Positions 6,888 through 58,860 of a DNA stretch of 64,000 nucleotides are shown one piece after another. The notes beneath the pieces were generated by a model that was not told the origin of the DNA, ran no database searches, and worked only from the letters and a program-made list of their open reading frames with translations. The stretch's first letter is position 1, and each line of letters starts with the position of its first letter. Source of the stretch: an uncultured virus (IMG/VR IMGVR_UViG_3300031278_000001) (lineage: Duplodnaviria > Heunggongvirae > Uroviricota > Caudoviricetes); the IMG/VR virus record IMGVR_UViG_3300031278_000001. One strand, written 5' to 3'. The position numbers and the translations under genes are program-made.

Positions 6888-9800
6888 TTAATTAATATTT
6901 TTTTCCTTTCTTTTAGATTTTTGTTTTTTTACTCTCTCAATTTCTTTTTCCCCTAATTGATGTACTATTTTCTCAATACTCGCCTTTGTTTTTCTACCCA
7001 ATTGTCCATTTGTTATCGAATCCAAAGCCTTACCAGGAATAGTATAATCAACTGTTCCTGATTTTTTAAACTCAGGGGGTATCAACATATTTGTCTCATT
7101 AATATCTGATAATTTCAGATCTATATTAAGACCTTTTTTCTTAACAGCAGTTTTAACCTCCTCAAATACTTTCTTACGCATTTCTTGATATAGCTTATCA
7201 TGAACACTTCCCTGCTCTGCCAATAATTGTTCAACCTCATAATCAAAATCCATATCAAACACATTACACAAAGTCTTACTCGAAATGAGATTTTTATCCC
7301 ATAAATTTATAGCCATATTCTTATAATTAGTATCATCTAAAAGATTCGCCTTATATTGCCAATCAAAATCAGGAATAACAGGAGTCCTATCTTTGTAAGG
7401 TCTCCTAATACCATGATCAAGATCACACTTTTTAATCTCATAAAAATCATGCTCAACAGCTACCGGCAAAAACACATTTTTCTTCCAACTATTTTCCAAC
7501 ATTTGTCTTACTGGAATATATCTGGACAATAAAACTCTAGCGCCAATAGAAGCATTGTTATAAGTAGGACCAACACCAGATGTCAATGCTTTATTCGTAA
7601 ATAATGCCGTGAGAACTCGCTCTTCTATTTGCTGAAGATCCGCAAAAATATTAGGAAACTTACCAGCAGAGCCAACCACTTCATAACTAACTACATTCGG
7701 AACAACAAGTTTAAAATCTGGTTGCTGAGTGGAATCCAAAATTAAATTAGATAAAGATTGTAAATATTCTTGCGTTGGGAAAAAACTATCAGATCCTACC
7801 TTCCAAATTTCTTTAGGCGCAATATGTCTTTCAGCTACCGCCATCTGGGCCTCCCTCAAACGAGTTTCATGAATCAAATCTATCAAAGCACGTAAGACAA
7901 TCGAAGAACCCCTAATTGCATAAGGACTCTTCCTTTGCATAATCATCAGATTGAAAGTATCCAATTCGATAGCCTCAGTTGTTTCAATAGCTTCTACAAT
8001 ATCATGAGGCAATTTACCTTTCATGGATTCGCCTTCTTCACCACTGGTAAATAATTCTTTTATACTCTCTCCAAATCTCAATTTATAAATATAATCACTT
8101 TCATTACCAAGAATAGGAGTACCTATTATATCAACATATTCCGGTTGTAATAAAGCCGAATCACTCCACCAACCTTCTTTATCATCCCAATATAAATAGG
8201 TGAAAACCTCACCTATCAACCACCATTCTCTAAGTTGATCATACATCAACATCAAGGCATTCATTTGATCCAACATATCTTCATAAAATTGATGTATCTT
8301 GGGATCAGTAATACCTTTTATTCCAAAACGAGAAAGAGGTAGTTCAGTATGTAAGCTGATGCAATTAAAACACCCCACACCTTGCACCATATAAGTATGT
8401 TCTTTCTCTACCTCAATATTATAAACTACTCCATCAAAAGTCTCTTTTTCTATAGAAGAAATTTGCCTATATATTCTTTTATGTTCAGTATCAACAAAAA
8501 TATTTCTGCGAATTAAACTCTGAGTTAAACTCTTCTTACAATCACCACCATACACTTTTTCAAATGCCCAACGAGGCATAACCCCCCTCCATCTATTATG
8601 CTTTCCTACGATATTCCAACCATCTTTTCTGTTTCCTTCTGTAGGCACTATTTCTTTTAATGACACAGGAATATGCAACCTCTCTGCTATAAATTTAATT
8701 TGCCAAGCCAAATCTTTAGACACCGTAACATAAACAACTTCTTTTTTTCCAAAATGTCCGTCTCCTTTGAGATAGGATAACAAAAACACCTTTTGAAACT
8801 CAAGAGAAGCATATACAATATCATCACTCAATTTTTTAGTGGATGCCCCTTTCCCCACATGCTTAAGACAAAGACTGGCTAATTCTGTAGAACTGACAGC
8901 CACTTGATTATAATTTTTAGTGTATGATAAACCAAGATTATCCAAGCAAGAATAAATCTCCTCAATATATTCCTCTTCCGAACGATAAAAACACCATTGA
9001 ACTTTATCATTACCTACAACACCACCATTTAAGTCTTTTAAATGTTTATGTAATTTATCTGAATATTCTTTTTCGCTCCATTTTTTCTCAGCTCTTTCAT
9101 GTATTCTCTTACTTTCTTGATCACTGACCAATTTAGAACCAGGAAATCTTTTCAGATATTCTTCTCCCTTAACTCCATGTTTAAAGCAAATATGAGAACC
9201 TAACTGTAAAAACTCTTTACCGCATATTTTGCACTTAACTTTTTCATCTTTCCCATATTTCTTAATAGGACGAGAATATTTTCTATATTTATTAACAAAC
9301 CCTTCAGCGGCATAATATCCCAACAATATTGCATGCTCTATTTTTAAATCGTTCTCTTTAACAAAATCATTCATGGTTGTTATCAGATAATCTTTGGGTT
9401 TAATTTTTTCCACTGTTATCTGTTCAATTTTTAAATCATTAGAAGAACATTCATGATATTTACAACACCCACTTTCACCAAAATAACATCTCTTCGGGCT
9501 TTTTCTAACTTTACCATTCTTATCTTTATAATTTTTAAATTTACATTTAAATTCTTCTTCTCTTATGACAGGAAACTTATGTTCCCCTGTAACTTTAATT
9601 TCCTCCCTTACTCCCATAATTTTAAGTTTGAAAATTTCACCCTCATATTTAGGATTAAAAGTCTTAGTAACTTTCCTAGGTTGAGATAAATGATTTAACA
9701 CTTCTTCCCCAACTTTAATTTCCTCAATATTTTTAACAGTACCGTCAGCCATATTCACAGGTGTTCCTTCCACAAAACAATTCCCCACCAATGGGTGAAA

Positions 9801-10076
9801 AGTATCAAAATAGCGGCAATATTGGTTCAAAGTCGCCATGTCCCACGGGATATAGTAATTAATAAAACTAAGCAAAGGAGAATACCATTGTGGAGCTTCT
9901 GTCTTTAAATCACCGGTACGCCTCATATTAGATCCTGCAGTAACTGCCCTGGAAGTATAACCATTGCCATAACCACCATACCCACCCGCACCTTTGAAAA
10001 CAGGAGCACCTATTCCAGCGGATACTTTTCGTGTACCCACTTCTTCAATAAAATCCCTAGGTCTCTTATCAATCAT
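6888..10076 (-). CDS. Portal protein precursor containing an intein
   Basis: Extein motifs HPLVGN|CISLHTELPLS, REWWLIGEVF, RGSSIV.RAL, GPTYNNAS; about 590 aa after splicing. Confidence 0.85.
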   Translation of the reverse strand: MIDKRPRDFIEEVGTRKVSAGIGAPVFKGAGGYGGYGNGYTSRAVTAGSNMRRTGDLKTEAPQWYSPLLSFINYYIPWDMATLNQYCRYFDTFHPLVGNCFVEGTPVNMADGTVKNIEEIKVGEEVLNHLSQPRKVTKTFNPKYEGEIFKLKIMGVREEIKVTGEHKFPVIREEEFKCKFKNYKDKNGKVRKSPKRCYFGESGCCKYHECSSNDLKIEQITVEKIKPKDYLITTMNDFVKENDLKIEHAILLGYYAAEGFVNKYRKYSRPIKKYGKDEKVKCKICGKEFLQLGSHICFKHGVKGEEYLKRFPGSKLVSDQESKRIHERAEKKWSEKEYSDKLHKHLKDLNGGVVGNDKVQWCFYRSEEEYIEEIYSCLDNLGLSYTKNYNQVAVSSTELASLCLKHVGKGASTKKLSDDIVYASLEFQKVFLLSYLKGDGHFGKKEVVYVTVSKDLAWQIKFIAERLHIPVSLKEIVPTEGNRKDGWNIVGKHNRWRGVMPRWAFEKVYGGDCKKSLTQSLIRRNIFVDTEHKRIYRQISSIEKETFDGVVYNIEVEKEHTYMVQGVGCFNCISLHTELPLSRFGIKGITDPKIHQFYEDMLDQMNALMLMYDQLREWWLIGEVFTYLYWDDKEGWWSDSALLQPEYVDIIGTPILGNESDYIYKLRFGESIKELFTSGEEGESMKGKLPHDIVEAIETTEAIELDTFNLMIMQRKSPYAIRGSSIVLRALIDLIHETRLREAQMAVAERHIAPKEIWKVGSDSFFPTQEYLQSLSNLILDSTQQPDFKLVVPNVVSYEVVGSAGKFPNIFADLQQIEERVLTALFTNKALTSGVGPTYNNASIGARVLLSRYIPVRQMLENSWKKNVFLPVAVEHDFYEIKKCDLDHGIRRPYKDRTPVIPDFDWQYKANLLDDTNYKNMAINLWDKNLISSKTLCNVFDMDFDYEVEQLLAEQGSVHDKLYQEMRKKVFEEVKTAVKKKGLNIDLKLSDINETNMLIPPEFKKSGTVDYTIPGKALDSITNGQLGRKTKASIEKIVHQLGEKEIERVKKQKSKRKEKNIN
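8364..9779 (-). mobile_element. 472-aa intein with LAGLIDADG endonuclease and inserted C2H2 zinc finger
   Basis: Block A CFVEGTPV, block B VTGEHKF, LLGYYAAEG and FLLSYLKGDG, block F VYNIEVEKEHTY, terminal FN followed by Cys+1. Confidence 0.92.
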
Positions 10077-19016: not shown

Positions 19017-20813
19017 CTAAAGATTGTTATATAATTCTTCAGCCTCTTCTTGAGTTAATTTCTTGTTCTTTCTTTTTTCATATTCTTCAATTTCTCCTAC
19101 TTTCTTATAATGATCTGTAACAGAAGATCCTTTCTTCCTTTTTATTGTCCAAGACATATTTTTACCAGACTCTTCTTTTAATCCACTACCTCTGTCTGGT
19201 AACTCTTCAACTGTCTCCACCTTATCATCTGGATGTAACCTTTTATGACGTTCCAATCTATCTTTATCCGTAAATGGACGTCCCCTTCCTCGTTCCACAT
19301 TACGAGATGGCAATCCACTACCCCTGTCTGGTAACTCTTCCACTTTTTCTGCCTCATCTTTAGGATGAACTCTCTTATGTCTTTCCAATCTCTCAGCATC
19401 GGTCAATGGTTTTCCCCTTCCTCGATCCACCCTCGAAGATTCAGAAATATATCTACCACCTAAATCTTTATATATCTGATTCACTAGCACCCAATACCTT
19501 TCGCTAGATATTCTGGTATTAGCTTCATTGTATATTTCATCAGCTTTCTCTTTCGCCCTTGCTCGGATATCCTTATCCATCACCTTCTCCTCCTGATCAT
19601 CCAGAGAAGATATTATTTCTTCACCTTCCTGCTCTTTATATAACGCATCAAGAAAATCCATTTCTGTATAAGGAATATCAGGATAATTCACAGCTTTCTT
19701 TTTACTGCCTTCTAGTTCATCCCAGTTACCTTCCTGCTCTTTATCCTCTTTTCTCACTAAATTCCACACTTCTGAATCTATTATTTGATAAGCATAAGCA
19801 CAAGCTATCGCATCATAACCTGTTGCACCTAAAGTATCAAAATGAGAAGTATCACCCTCCCAATCCGTTACTATTAAATGACAATCATTATAATCTCCTA
19901 CATAAGGATCAATAAATTCAGATAATAAATCTAAAGCATCTTCCATATTATCATATATTCCATCTACTACATCACTTTTCAATTCATTATATATTTCTTG
20001 TGCTATATCATAAGGATCAGTCGATCTTTTAGTATAAAGACCTGATTCTTTAACCTTTTTCTCTACTACTCTTTTAGAAGATTCTATTCCAGGACCTTCT
20101 TCACCTCTTTCCGCTTTATCTATCTCATCCACTATCCTATCTTGTTCCTCTTCCCATTCATCTTTAACAGATTCTAAAGCAGAATAAGTTTCTTGTTCTA
20201 TAATCTGATAAGCATATGACTGAGCTATTTCATCATAACCTGTTGCACCCAAATCTTCCAAATTAGAAGTACTCCCCCCCCACCTTCTTATAATCTCATG
20301 ACAGTCAGAATAATAAGTAACATAAGGTTCAATCCACTCACTTAATCGATCTAATTTTTCTTCTAACAGAGATATTCTTTCATTATATATATCCATTGGA
20401 TCTACTTCTTCATCATGCTTAAAATATTCTGCCACATCTGGTTCCACTTCTTCTCTTAATTCATCGGCTATATATTTTGCTATTAAATAAGGATCAGTAT
20501 CATTATCTGCTTCTTTTTTCATCTCAGATACAAAAAGTTTACTTCTATCAGCTTCTTTCTCAAAACTATCATATTTCTTTAATATAGTAGCACCACCTTT
20601 ACGTTTCTTAATAGCACCACATATTTTTTCAGCTCTTTCTTGAGAATAATTTCCAACATTCATTTGATAATTCACACAACCACAAAATTTATTTGGGCCA
20701 CCACCATCCGGACACTTCTGAGATTTAAAAGTATCATCTTCATTTTGATACCTTTTATCTACATTCGCAATTTTTTTATTTAATTTCACTCTATTCCTAA
20801 TTTTTCTAGACAT
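19017..20813 (-). CDS. Modular protein with two Ocr-like acidic domains and two RGRG..TD..RLERH..ELPDRGSGL repeats
   Basis: Internal duplications visible in the translation; K-rich linkers. Confidence 0.7.
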   Translation of the reverse strand: MSRKIRNRVKLNKKIANVDKRYQNEDDTFKSQKCPDGGGPNKFCGCVNYQMNVGNYSQERAEKICGAIKKRKGGATILKKYDSFEKEADRSKLFVSEMKKEADNDTDPYLIAKYIADELREEVEPDVAEYFKHDEEVDPMDIYNERISLLEEKLDRLSEWIEPYVTYYSDCHEIIRRWGGSTSNLEDLGATGYDEIAQSYAYQIIEQETYSALESVKDEWEEEQDRIVDEIDKAERGEEGPGIESSKRVVEKKVKESGLYTKRSTDPYDIAQEIYNELKSDVVDGIYDNMEDALDLLSEFIDPYVGDYNDCHLIVTDWEGDTSHFDTLGATGYDAIACAYAYQIIDSEVWNLVRKEDKEQEGNWDELEGSKKKAVNYPDIPYTEMDFLDALYKEQEGEEIISSLDDQEEKVMDKDIRARAKEKADEIYNEANTRISSERYWVLVNQIYKDLGGRYISESSRVDRGRGKPLTDAERLERHKRVHPKDEAEKVEELPDRGSGLPSRNVERGRGRPFTDKDRLERHKRLHPDDKVETVEELPDRGSGLKEESGKNMSWTIKRKKGSSVTDHYKKVGEIEEYEKRKNKKLTQEEAEELYNNL

Positions 20814-21323: not shown

Positions 21324-21340
21324 TATACCCCCAAATTACA

Positions 21341-21480
21341 TGGAGTGGTTGGGAATCGAACCCAAGTTCTTGAGATAAAGAGCAGGAAGACCTACACTCC
21401 CTGACCGTTTTGTTAAAGCGGTTCCGTGAACACCGCTATAGGCTTTAGTTGTTCCATCCCAGTCAAAACCTTTCCACCCC
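21341..21480 (-). ncRNA. ssrA: Miniature tmRNA (140 nt)
   Basis: 5' GGGGTGGAAAGGTTTTGAC; acceptor GGGGTGG/CCACTCC-A with G3:U70; T-arm TTGGG-TTCGATT-CCCAA; P2 TGGGATGGA/TTTATCTCA. Confidence 0.8.
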
Positions 21481-21652
21481 AATTATTTTTTTCTATCCTT
21501 TATATTTACCATTAAAATAACTATAATAACAAAAATTCCAACAACACATGCAATAAAATCTGATAATGAATCAATCATATATTATATTCCTCACACCATT
21601 TACTGAATTATATTTTTATAAGAAAAGTAACTATCGACAGTAAAAAAGTACT

Positions 21653-22447
21653 TCAAATATGATGTCTCTTCCCACTAAAAAATTTAAACATATCCCGTCT
21701 GAGCTTGCATAACTTACTAATATCACCATCCCAATCTTTAGGATAAAAAACTATACCCTCTGCTGCCATTCCCTCAAAACCGATAGTCTTATTAACTCCC
21801 TGTGCTGTTCCACCAAAATCTACTTTCTTGGATCTCTTACGTTTACACAAACTCCATAACCCTTCAAACGCTTCTTTGACTATCGTATATTTCTCTGCCG
21901 ATGTCTTATCTTTACACAGTGGAACAATATCTTTATTCCAAAACTTATATTCATAATGCTTTTTCAAATATATAAATGGCATCCACAGATATCTATCCAA
22001 TTTATAGGGATTGCCATTCACCTTTGGGCCAATAAGCTCACCAAAATATTGTCCATTTTCCAAATCATTTAATTTTAGGTACTCTCTTTCAATAGATTTC
22101 TGTATTCCTTCAACAAACCGAAAACCACCTTTGCTCCAAAAAGGAATAGCATTTGTCCGGTTAAACATTCGGACAATATCATGATCTTCAATTACTATCG
22201 ATACACAGCTTCCATCCAATTTCTCCACTGCCACAACATTGTCTGTAAAGATCCACTCAAACCCGGGAGTTATTTCCGATGTCACCACATAATGATCTTC
22301 TTCATCTAATTGTCTTACAAACGGACTGCTTAATTTTGGCATGTCATGTATTTTTATTGGTTCCTTTTCTTCTTCTAACGGTTCAGTATGACATATATCA
22401 TCTATACAGGTTTCTACCGTATCCATTGCTTTATCTTCCTCACACAT
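21653..22447 (-). CDS. ATP-dependent RNA ligase-like protein
   Basis: Motif I EKLDGS, GELIGPKVNGNP, EGIVF, CKLRRDMF. Confidence 0.8.
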   Translation of the reverse strand: MCEEDKAMDTVETCIDDICHTEPLEEEKEPIKIHDMPKLSSPFVRQLDEEDHYVVTSEITPGFEWIFTDNVVAVEKLDGSCVSIVIEDHDIVRMFNRTNAIPFWSKGGFRFVEGIQKSIEREYLKLNDLENGQYFGELIGPKVNGNPYKLDRYLWMPFIYLKKHYEYKFWNKDIVPLCKDKTSAEKYTIVKEAFEGLWSLCKRKRSKKVDFGGTAQGVNKTIGFEGMAAEGIVFYPKDWDGDISKLCKLRRDMFKFFSGKRHHI

Positions 22448-22488: not shown

Positions 22489-23103
22489 TTATCCAACACC
22501 TTCCGCAAAATCTATAGCCATTTGTTTCGCATCATCCAATGTCTTAGCCTCCCACTCACCTTTACCCCATTTAGAAGGGAAATCCAAAAATGCCTCACCA
22601 ATATTTCCTCTTATTTTTTCATTAGGAGTGTTTTCACCAAACACCCATGAAACTCTTACTCCATCATCAACAAACTCACCTTTAATTTCTCTATGGTCTT
22701 TATCTTTCCAAAAGAGAAGACAAGAATCCAGAAAATCATCTTCATTTTTAGAACCATACCCAGCATCACCTTTTTTAACTTTTGAGCCTATTCCAAAACC
22801 ATAGAGTGCTCGATGTGACCAACCATACCATTTCTCTTGCTGAGGATTATAACCTATGTTGACAGTATGACCACTAATATTTTGTGAATTCTGCAATTGT
22901 TCTGTAATACCCAATCGAAGCAAAAATTTAAACCCATCCTTTTCCATTCCCTCCCGGGTGAAATACGATCCATCAATCTTAGAATAATAACACATCTCCT
23001 TATCATTTGGAATATCACTTGGTTTCTTCTCTGCAACCTCATCAATAAAACTCATTAACATTTTTTGTGTAATTCTTCTTTGTCTAACTTTTTCATCTTT
23101 CAT
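22489..23103 (-). CDS. Phage hypothetical protein
   Basis: KWYGWSHRA.YGFGIG and AKTLDDAKQMAIDFA motifs; GGAGG RBS before ATG 23103. Confidence 0.6.
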   Translation of the reverse strand: MKDEKVRQRRITQKMLMSFIDEVAEKKPSDIPNDKEMCYYSKIDGSYFTREGMEKDGFKFLLRLGITEQLQNSQNISGHTVNIGYNPQQEKWYGWSHRALYGFGIGSKVKKGDAGYGSKNEDDFLDSCLLFWKDKDHREIKGEFVDDGVRVSWVFGENTPNEKIRGNIGEAFLDFPSKWGKGEWEAKTLDDAKQMAIDFAEGVG

Positions 23104-23124
23104 AACTTTACCTCCAATCTTACG

Positions 23125-23181
23125 TATACAATTTGTATGCAATCATATACAATTTGTATGCAATCATATACAATTTGTATA
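23125..23181. repeat. 21-bp tandem repeat, about 2.7 copies, with palindromic core
   Basis: tatacaatttgtatgcaatca at 23125 and 23146, partial copy at 23167. Confidence 0.95.
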
Positions 23182-24068: not shown

Positions 24069-24080
24069 AAATAATTTTAA

Positions 24081-24248
24081 GAATGTGGGGTGGGTTTCGT
24101 CAAATCAGAAGCTTATCCCTGATTATTACCCACAACCAACTACCCCATGTTTACGTCTTTATAAGTTGGAACCATTCTCTACTATCTGCTTCATAATAAA
24201 CAATGTGCATTAGGCCACGGGATCAGCCTTATTCTGCCACCCACATTC
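24081..24248 (-). ncRNA. tRNA-like RNA with hairpin insertions in the D, anticodon and T loops
   Basis: Terminal stem GAATGTGGG/CCCACATTC; TG-GCAG..TGC D-stem; T-stem GTGGG/CCCAC stacked on the acceptor. Confidence 0.6.
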
Positions 24249-24253
24249 AAATT

Positions 24254-24592
24254 TCATACTTTATTAGTTTCTCCCATTTTAAATTTACGTACATCCCCGG
24301 CCTTAGGAATAGTCAAATTACTCGTCTGTTGTATATACATATTTTTCATTTCTTCATTCAATAACACTGGAATCATTATCATCGCATGTTTATACAAAAA
24401 TATATCTTTATCGGGGAAAGGAATCCACCTGATAGCCATTCTACCTTGTTCATCGGGTGGAAATTTAATAACTTTATATGCTCTTCTTACTTGAATAGTA
24501 TCATCTTTTTCCTTAACAAATTTACCTACGATTGCCAGCCCATTAACTAACTCTACTTGTATTATTTCATCTTTTAACTGATCTAAACTCAT
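24254..24592 (-). CDS. Sm/LSm-like fold protein
   Basis: VELVNG..IVG, RWIPF, YIQQTSNL pattern seen in large phages. Confidence 0.45.
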   Translation of the reverse strand: MSLDQLKDEIIQVELVNGLAIVGKFVKEKDDTIQVRRAYKVIKFPPDEQGRMAIRWIPFPDKDIFLYKHAMIMIPVLLNEEMKNMYIQQTSNLTIPKAGDVRKFKMGETNKV

Positions 24593-58029: not shown

Positions 58030-58860
58030 CTATAACATACTATCAGAGTTGTATTTATTATAAAATCTTTTCAAAGAACTATAAGTGTTTGTAGGTGAAT
58101 ACCTAAACACCTCACTATATTTCACCCATGCAGTTGAACCAGAAATATAATCTATAAACTTACGGATAGATGTCAACCTCAAAACAAGCTCCTTTCTCTG
58201 ATTGCGCCCAATCTTAATCATCAGATCCTGATTCGTGTTAAGCAAAACATATAGATCACTGAAAAATTTATCAACTTCTTTTTCATTGAATCTACCCATA
58301 GTAAAAGTTATTCTCGGTTGATTTTTTTCAAAGTCAAATTTACCTTTTTTCATATAAAAGTGTAAAACCACATTTGGATTTAAATTCATAGCAGGAATAT
58401 GTTTCTCCTTATCCACATACCAACGTTCCCAATAATTAAAGAACTCCGCATAGGAGAAAGTAGTCAATTGGAACCTATCAGCAGATTCCCTGATACCCTT
58501 ACTTTGTATTCCAAAAGATTTTAACTGATTATATAAACATTCAAGATAAAGTCGGTCCTGTGATGCCACCTCATAAACCGCACTACTATTTGAAATGGGA
58601 CGCATTGATGCACCACCTAGAATAGTACCATCCAATAAATCAACACAATCATTCCAATCTGCTCTCTTATCATCAAGATGATTACTAACATCTTTATCAT
58701 GAACACAATGCTTATAACCCTGGGGTTTAATGCCTAACTTATCACACCATTTAGAAATTGTAGCAATTGAACAACCACATTCTTCTGATATATCTTTTTG
58801 AGTGAGATGTCTAACTTCAATTGCATCCTTCATATATTCTATATCTTTATATTTTTTCAT
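58030..58860 (-). CDS. HTH plus LAGLIDADG-fold protein with degenerate active sites
   Basis: LTQKDISEECGCSIATISKW; GTILGGA; WY..KEK.IP; FYMKKG. Confidence 0.7.
   Translation of the reverse strand: MKKYKDIEYMKDAIEVRHLTQKDISEECGCSIATISKWCDKLGIKPQGYKHCVHDKDVSNHLDDKRADWNDCVDLLDGTILGGASMRPISNSSAVYEVASQDRLYLECLYNQLKSFGIQSKGIRESADRFQLTTFSYAEFFNYWERWYVDKEKHIPAMNLNPNVVLHFYMKKGKFDFEKNQPRITFTMGRFNEKEVDKFFSDLYVLLNTNQDLMIKIGRNQRKELVLRLTSIRKFIDYISGSTAWVKYSEVFRYSPTNTYSSLKRFYNKYNSDSML

Follow-up and report, generated by a model that had tools for sequence, protein, structure and literature searches.

Organellar transfer-messenger RNAs (tmRNAs) that lack a coding sequence (CDS) are ~65 nucleotides (nt) long and consist of the tRNA-like domain (TLD) only, and bacterial tmRNAs with a tag of two amino acids are otherwise full-size. 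For phages, a single truncated tmRNA, likewise of the TLD-only type, is found in the published work that we draw on: the CDS-less RNA of Mycobacterium phage DS6A (tmID 11587; Hudson, Lau & Williams 2014, PMC4131195; PMC11915505), although the database of PMC11915505 may hold similar mid-size forms. A molecule similar to the TLD-only ssrA of mycobacteriophage DS6A strongly inhibits tmRNA (PMC4131195, PMC11915505), a result for which PMC4131195 cites Mao et al. 2009. Engineered Escherichia coli tmRNAs carry a hairpin in place of pseudoknot 1 (PK1; Tanner et al. 2006) or single strands in place of pseudoknots 2 to 4 (PK2-4; Nameki et al. 2000), both as reported in PMC3968760. Here we describe a 140-nt gene of an uncultured large phage and conclude that it is a genuine tmRNA gene, truncated and divergent. 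It runs from 21480 to 21341 on the minus strand of a stretch of 64,000 nt (IMG/VR record IMGVR_UViG_3300031278_000001; referred to as the window), whose phage origin is seen from its genes for a major head protein, a protease, and an intein-containing portal protein.

The Rfam tmRNA model RF00023 matched this RNA from end to end, with ~300 internal model positions skipped and E values of 2.4e-12 in a local search and 3.4e-10 in a search of the whole window on both strands with all 4227 families. It was the best match in its clan, the tmRNA model scoring better than the tRNA model. An initial annotation of the window, made from the sequence without database searches, had proposed a check by Infernal tmRNA models and ARAGORN, and the two tools differed in outcome. 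The Infernal match extends over the entire RNA, but its 34.5 bits fall below the curated gathering score of 47 bits; Rfam at the gathering threshold reported only a tRNA-Pro gene in the window, and ARAGORN called the same tRNA-Pro gene and not the RNA gene.

The TLD is beyond chance. GGGGUGG and CCACUCC form all seven acceptor pairs, including G3:U70, and are followed by the discriminator A140; with those of the T-arm, all 12 stem pairs are intact, and the T-loop UUCGAUU fits the consensus. The D region has no stem and ends in the GAC typical of tmRNAs (GGUUUUGAC). A CCA end is not encoded, A140 being followed by UGU, and the tRNA-Pro gene of the phage likewise has none. Helix 2 (P2) comprises 9 bp (UGGGAUGGA/UUUAUCUCA) and closes a 73-nt interior with two hairpins, the first of which, hairpin A (AGCGGU/ACCGCU), stands at the place of PK1. 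The interval from GAC to the T-arm measures 96 nt. The second hairpin is separated from the 3′ strand of P2 by only 3 nt, which leaves no room for PK2-4. The initial annotation had named each of these elements, that is, an intact TLD with G3:U70, discriminator A, stemless D region and T-arm, a P2 helix, a PK1-like hairpin, and the lack of space for PK2-4, and all of them were recovered. The same applies, as far as anatomy is concerned, to the proposed reading frame GGU CAG GGA GUG UAG with its UAG in the loop of CAGGGAG/CUUCCUG, to the other two frames, which are open to the 3′ end, and to the absence of the usual degron, since the frame would end in ...GQGV and not in ...AA. The coordinates of all parts and of the neighboring genes are listed in Table 1.

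The RNA has a G+C content of 48.6% compared to a window mean of 33.3%, which places it at the 98.9th percentile of 140-nt windows. Either hairpin is more stable than 98% of shuffled sequences (hairpin A, -8.5 kcal/mol versus -3.4 ± 2.0 in shuffles, p 0.02; second hairpin, p 0.022). The minimum free energy of the whole molecule is unremarkable (z -1.55; 16 of 200 shuffles fold equally well). When the TLD was constrained, pair probabilities were 0.67-0.96 for P2, 0.83-0.93 for hairpin A, and 0.83-0.85 for the second hairpin. An extended fold with a long helix 2 was 3.3 kcal/mol worse than the fold of the initial annotation and had a pair probability of 0.0. By inspection, nt 44-64 form a plain hairpin in which only loop pairings of 3-4 bp are possible, with no convincing second stem for a PK1 pseudoknot. 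The internal region searched alone against Rfam gave no meaningful match, the best being OxyS with an E value of 2.6.

Table 1. Parts of the truncated tmRNA gene and neighboring genes. RNA nt i corresponds to window position 21481-i, so that nt 1 is 21480 and nt 140 is 21341.
Feature	Window position	Strand	Evidence or remark
Truncated tmRNA-like gene, 140 nt	21341..21480	-	RF00023, 34.5 bits, model positions 1-374
Acceptor stem 5′ strand GGGGUGG, nt 1-7, with G3 of G3:U70	21474..21480	-	7/7 pairs with nt 133-139
Stemless D-region analogue AAAGGUUUUGAC, nt 8-19	21462..21473	-	Aligns to tmRNA consensus GAucuGGaUUCGAC
Helix 2 (P2) 5′ strand UGGGAUGGA, nt 20-28	21453..21461	-	Pairs with nt 102-110
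Hairpin A, AGCGGU-GUUCACGGA-ACCGCU, nt 44-64, at PK1 place	21417..21437	-	Folding, shuffles
A-rich single-stranded linker UUAACAAAAC, nt 65-74; in-frame UAA at nt 66-68	21407..21416	-	
Candidate micro-frame GGU CAG GGA GUG UAG, nt 75-89; open from CAA at nt 69	21392..21406	-	
Second hairpin CAGGGAG-UGUAGGU-CUUCCUG, nt 78-98, "H5-like"; UAG (nt 87-89) in 7-nt loop	21383..21403	-	
Helix 2 (P2) 3′ strand UUUAUCUCA, nt 102-110	21371..21379	-	Partner of nt 20-28
T-arm UUGGG-UUCGAUU-CCCAA, nt 116-132	21349..21365	-	Agrees with consensus GGGUUCGAuUCCC
Acceptor stem 3′ strand CCACUCC and discriminator A, nt 133-140	21341..21348	-	Sequence
Open reading frame (ORF), 31 aa, small, hydrophobic	21483..21578	-	Stop ends 2 nt before RNA nt 1; GAGGAA ribosome-binding site upstream
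Orphan ORF, 165 aa	20826..21323	-	ATG 17 nt past RNA 3′ end; GGGGG ribosome-binding site directly after RNA
RNA ligase gene	21653..22447	-	PF09414, E 1.3e-08; phrog_548
Tad6-like anti-Thoeris gene	22489..23142	-	PF25188, E 8.7e-38

Relatives of the phage did contain full-length tmRNAs. A search with the major head protein gave 75 homologues (E ≤ 1e-10), and an alignment of 35 head proteins, that of the window included, led to 20 viral records, all of them fragments (CheckV completeness 4-90%), with head proteins that are 38-52% identical. A search with RF00023 yielded full-length tmRNAs of 349-354 nt and 119-179 bits in four of these 20 records, G001, G004, G007, and G012, whose head proteins are 41-50% identical to that of the window. 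G004 and G007 have the same tmRNA sequence, with the tag AEEQTPLRAAA (loci L100/L103), and the tags of the other two are ANEEFRAAA in G001 (L101) and DNYNYAYTA in G012 (L106). A short form like the window RNA was present in none of the 20 records. Weak RF00023 matches in G001, G010, and G018 turned out to be ordinary tRNAs. No homologue of a window protein was found within 10 kb of the relatives' tmRNAs, and these RNAs have only the universal tmRNA positions in common with the window RNA. The initial annotation had stated that full-length homologues, with a recent deletion here, would speak against it; distant relatives do carry full-length tmRNAs, but at other, non-syntenic sites. Because the full-length tmRNAs occupy other genomic sites, the sequences neither show nor exclude a recent deletion.

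Like these standard tmRNAs and the RF00023 model, the window RNA possesses the TLD, the start of helix 2, a GUAG 26 nt before the T-stem, and an A-rich stretch ahead of a G-starting codon, after structure at the PK1 position. It differs from them by its length, its low score, and its being passed over by ARAGORN, by the absence of the PK1 pseudoknot, PK2-4, and a tag ending in ...AA, and by its helix 2, which has 9 bp compared to ~30 paired positions for the helix that connects TLD and pseudoknot ring in the RF00023 model. With the DS6A RNA it shares the phage origin, a complete alanine-type TLD, the lack of a canonical tag and of PK2-4, and a presumed action on SmpB and trans-translation. Compared with DS6A by its published description, "little more than the TLD" (PMC4131195), the window RNA is larger, with helix 2, two hairpins, and a possible frame of 4-6 codons between GAC and the T-arm. 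The window RNA has the same parts as the engineered E. coli tmRNAs (PMC3968760), namely a TLD, a helix 2, a hairpin, a frame in single-stranded form, and a stop within a hairpin, but those constructs keep a full-length helix 2 and had their pseudoknots replaced one class at a time; a construct with all pseudoknots removed and a 9-bp helix 2 is not described in the relevant section of PMC3968760. An extremely short or absent coding part is also a feature of bacterial tmRNAs with 2-aa tags (e.g., in Fermentibacterota) and of the CDS-less organellar tmRNAs (PMC11915505). The window RNA thus fits neither the standard tmRNA (Rfam cut-off, long helix 2, PK1-4, degron) nor the DS6A type, and is therefore a variant within the phage-encoded truncated tmRNAs.

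Short tmRNA-like genes appear to be common in viral and metagenomic DNA and are mostly unannotated. Of 48 metagenome loci (L003-L050), one was the window's own contig, 27 were distinct forms, 7 were duplicates of these 27 or of L002, and 13 were set aside as tandem tRNAs or coding sequence. The 27 distinct forms (118-146 nt) all have 7/7 acceptor pairs and G3:U70, and together with two from viral contigs (L001 and L002) they make up 29 non-redundant phage or metagenome forms of 115-146 nt with intact acceptor and G3:U70 (for example, L013 5001-5122, L019 1985-2092, and L045 1887-1997), a set that is apparently undescribed. Several lie inside tRNA arrays (e.g., L004, L024, L027, L029, and L045), and 15 of the 29 loci are without a tRNA gene. 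Judged by eye, many consist of a long helix 2 capped by one stem-loop, with GCGUGGUAGC and a GAAAAGGCCCAU-like loop motif recurring; the apical stem-loop may be a PK1-like pseudoknot. L013 and L039, the two of the 29 forms that were aligned by eye, have no common reading frame. Rfam was run on 17 loci, 16 of mid-size and the TLD-only L065; 16 reached 56-72 bits and exceeded the gathering score, and one cut match had 32.2 bits, so that the window RNA has the lowest score among the complete matches of short forms examined.

The window RNA resembles these 115-146-nt forms in its intact TLD with G3:U70, a helix 2 around a small internal domain, the absence of PK2-4, and its viral or metagenomic origin, but its interior is unrelated: the internal sequence is shared by none of the 29 forms, and blastn-short of the internal region against all short-form loci gave nothing. 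Homologues of the RNA ligase or of other window neighbors were not found near the other short forms. TLD-only forms of ~65-80 nt beside tRNAs were also found in the scan of viral contigs, and another, L065 448-527 (minus strand; 77 nt, 64.5 bits), on a contig of a Phycisphaerales metagenome-assembled genome. L065 and the window RNA have the acceptor GGGGUGG and the D region GGUUUUGAC in common, and nothing else. At L004 1883-2201 (minus strand), ARAGORN calls a 319-nt tmRNA with the tag EAAQARALG*, whose 3′ end is that of the 134-nt short form; this locus in a tRNA array may have two alternative 5′ ends or a tandem arrangement.

Apart from identical copies, no homologue of the RNA itself was found. 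Using blastn, the locus and the RNA gave nothing or only matches of T-arm size (E ≥ 2) in 50,697 GenBank phages, and four pattern scans covering viral, metagenome, and genome contigs did not reveal a divergent homologue. The only other copies are identical and belong to L018, evidently the window's own contig, and to a contig of sequencing run X3. A 3′-end pattern gave 22 loci in 185,579 species genomes, among them L065 and no full-length tmRNA with matching ends. The stretch is contained in six DNA runs labeled salt marsh metagenome; runs X3-X6 contained no variant reads over the RNA, and X4 and X6 contain an RNA ligase relative of ~81% identity. The viral contigs contained no close relative of either the RNA ligase or the major head protein, and tblastn of the 598-aa and 165-aa proteins encoded downstream of the RNA against GenBank phages gave no match. 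Closer homologues of the major capsid protein (P0003-P0008), with 64-92% identity, are encoded on contigs of up to 44 kb. The 165-aa protein matched only itself among 5.8 billion proteins.

Nearly all genes of the window are on the minus strand, and the RNA almost completely fills a 159-nt intergenic gap. Its position just downstream of the RNA ligase gene, as given in the initial annotation, holds, with the 31-aa ORF intervening. No minus-strand promoter-like site was detected in 21481-21650, and the only terminator-like call was the second hairpin itself, with a poor U-tract. Because neither a promoter of its own nor a good terminator was found and because ORFs lie 2 nt and 17 nt away, the RNA is probably cotranscribed and cut out like a tRNA. 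A gene for SmpB was not found among the 76 scanned ORFs of the 64-kb window, and the RNA would therefore have to use host factors. SmpB was likewise not found in five related records (fragments, including G001, G004, and G012). PF09414 occurred in one of five related records, there followed by an ordinary tRNA-His, and no homologue of a window neighbor was seen near the ligase of G018. The gene adjoining the RNA ligase encodes a protein similar to Tad6, an inhibitor of type I Thoeris, which suggests an anti-defense neighborhood.

Other features of the window were recorded alongside. An intein that carries a LAGLIDADG homing endonuclease domain splits the portal gene (6888-10076, minus strand), and a free-standing LAGLIDADG/HNH endonuclease gene is located at 58030-58860. 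The intergenic region 24080-24263 (minus strand), 2.6 kb upstream of the tmRNA-like gene, matches the manA RNA motif (RF01745) over the full model length, but below threshold (37.9 bits versus a gathering score of 55.2; E 3.2e-06).

We favor the reading that the truncated tmRNA acts via its TLD on SmpB, EF-Tu, and stalled ribosomes and competes with or short-circuits host tagging, and assign it a probability of roughly 45%, by analogy with DS6A. The RNA would be transcribed within the minus-strand operon and excised by host tRNA-processing enzymes, and CCA would be added posttranscriptionally, as must happen for tRNA-Pro. Charging with alanine via G3:U70 is predicted from the sequence determinants G3:U70 and A73. 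The TLD would then bind host SmpB and EF-Tu and the RNA would compete with host tmRNA at stalled ribosomes, where nascent chains might gain at most an alanine or a very short non-degron tail in place of a degradation tag. The outcome for host trans-translation could be inhibition or a short circuit, the effect published for the TLD-only DS6A RNA. In favor of this reading we count the identity of the TLD, the high G+C content and the nearly filled intergenic gap, which resemble a signal of selection, the predicted fold, the missing CCA in tRNA-Pro as well, the DS6A precedent, the frequency of short forms that carry no tag, the chance-level frame with its structurally explained UAG, and the lack of an SmpB gene among the 76 window ORFs. 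The initial annotation had offered two roles, a ribosome-rescue RNA and an SmpB/EF-Tu decoy; the decoy agrees with the DS6A publication and is judged the likelier, and the tagging role is unsupported beyond compatibility.

Several observations weigh against the competitor reading. The 73 structured internal nt have been retained, which a pure TLD decoy does not explain. AGAAC replaces the conserved GGAC before the T-arm and the Rfam score is low, 34.5 bits versus 56-72 bits in 16 of 17 other short forms; this could mean impaired SmpB binding and a gene in decay. No divergent homologue was found from which covariation could show selection on the TLD or the structure, and no RNA run was among the sequencing runs containing the stretch. 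The 64-kb window probably covers a fraction of a much larger genome, since completeness is rated at 68-69% for related records that are 132 kb and 128 kb long, and a full-length tmRNA or SmpB gene may lie elsewhere.

The retained interior would be accounted for if the RNA were a bona fide minimal tmRNA, on which translation, once the alanine has been transferred, resumes at GGU or an earlier codon and stops at UAG, leaving a non-degron tail. We regard this as unlikely. In its favor, E. coli tmRNA tolerates the loss of PK2-4 and the exchange of PK1 for a small stable hairpin (PMC3968760, citing Nameki 2000 and Tanner 2006), bacterial tags of 2 aa exist (PMC11915505), the 73 internal nt are kept and structured, and the lineage uses tmRNAs, as seen from the four relatives. 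UAG is a used stop in the phage (11 of 71 window ORFs of ≥100 aa), and it stands in a hairpin loop, as in H5. The frame consists of UAA66, the codons CAA AAC GGU CAG GGA GUG (QNGQGV), and UAG87, which amounts to 4-6 codons, and GGU CAG GGA GUG UAG is directly preceded by AACAAAAC. The usual distance from PK1 to the resume codon is ~12 nt, and the key determinant is an almost invariant A at position -4 (PMC2481249); in the window RNA GGU follows hairpin A at a distance of 10 nt and position -4 is A. Position -5, however, is also A, and the corresponding exchange U85A is deleterious in E. coli (PMC2481249).

All features of this frame are at chance level. The chance of a stop codon in a 7-nt loop is ~0.23 and that of 13 stop-free codons in a frame ~0.5, two open frames out of three are also expected by chance, and GGU was picked as resume codon post hoc, the frame being already open from nt 69. 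Moreover, the UAG coincides with a conserved position of helix 2. It precedes the T-stem by 26 nt, exactly as the helix-2 UAG does in the full-length tmRNAs of G012 and G004; in the 3′ strand of helix 2 of the RF00023 consensus, GCAUG is paired and UAG is unpaired, 27 model positions before the T-stem, and GUAG is invariant in a MAFFT alignment of the window RNA with three full-length phage tmRNAs. The UAG therefore needs no coding explanation, and its place in a hairpin loop drops out as independent evidence for a tag, although a role as stop is still compatible with it. The tag would end in ...GQGV, compared to RAAA, RAAA, and AYTA in the tmRNAs of related phages. Thus, the four-codon tag put forward in the initial annotation is compatible with the sequence but not supported beyond chance.

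Geometry and conservation add to the doubts about a minimal tmRNA. In a full tmRNA, helix 2 is a long arm that extends out of the ribosome, with the remainder of the molecule wrapped around the 30S beak (PMC3968760). With a helix 2 of only 9 bp and 12 nt from the stop to P2, loading into the mRNA channel would appear sterically strained, and no divergent homologue was found that could show conservation of the frame. Less likely still is that this RNA represents the smallest natural messenger tmRNA, in which the ancestral helix-2 UAG would have been co-opted as the stop of the 4-6-codon frame and the tail would read (A)GQGV or (A)QNGQGV.

We are also doubtful, and rather more so, about the gene being a decaying, functionless remnant of a full-length phage tmRNA after an internal deletion. 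The ordinary tags of the relatives' full-length tmRNAs, the helix-2 GUAG at its ancestral 26-nt spacing, the lowest Rfam score among uncut short forms, and the singleton status of the copy are in line with decay. On the other hand, all 12 acceptor and T-arm pairs, G3:U70, and the T-loop are intact, the G+C content is 15 points over the genome mean, and the gene sits in a tightly packed operon, where idle DNA is not expected to last. The relatives' tmRNAs, moreover, are non-syntenic and have nothing in common with this copy beyond universal tmRNA positions.

The tight packing is also what would be expected of a tRNA-shaped processing signal, similar to a t-element, whose TLD only recruits RNase P and 3′ tRNA-processing enzymes. 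Cuts between the 31-aa and the 165-aa ORFs would then govern how stable or how well translated the downstream message is. In line with this, the RNA is embedded in a polycistron, is followed at once by the ribosome-binding site of the next gene, and has no promoter-like site directly upstream and no good terminator. We consider this explanation improbable, both for the recruitment and for its effect on the message, as G3:U70, the tmRNA-specific stemless D region with GAC, and helix 2 would all be unneeded and the best clan match is the tmRNA and not the tRNA model. Any embedded tRNA-like gene is, moreover, processed as a by-product.

Very improbable is some other use of the stretch, either as a 48-aa ORF (21336-21482, minus strand), which spans the RNA in one frame but begins with TTG, lacks a well-spaced ribosome-binding site, and is judged coincidental, the tmRNA match (E 3.4e-10) explaining the sequence, or as an antisense RNA against the 598-aa gene (19017-20813, minus strand), to whose mRNA it is perfectly complementary at two sites, RNA nt 92-107 (3′ strand of the second hairpin and start of the P2 3′ strand) recurring exactly on the plus strand with 16 nt at 19730-19745 and 15 nt at 19625-19639 and matches of ≥16 nt occurring in 10 of 2000 shuffles, but these two sites are one event, an internal repeat encoding KEQEG, and among 447 real segments of 143 nt, 80 likewise show a repeat of ≥15 nt elsewhere in the window.

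The gene described here is an intermediate form in which helix 2 and two hairpins are retained, the arrangement that mutagenesis in E. coli suggests as the minimum for tagging. It offers a natural test case for how small a working tmRNA can be and for whether phages inhibit or repurpose trans-translation. If minimal tagging were true, stalled ribosomes would be released while the proteins are spared, and host quality control would be turned into pure ribosome recycling. If the RNA is only a decoy or a remnant, it would be a further divergent member of a known family, overlooked by ARAGORN and by the Rfam gathering cut-off.

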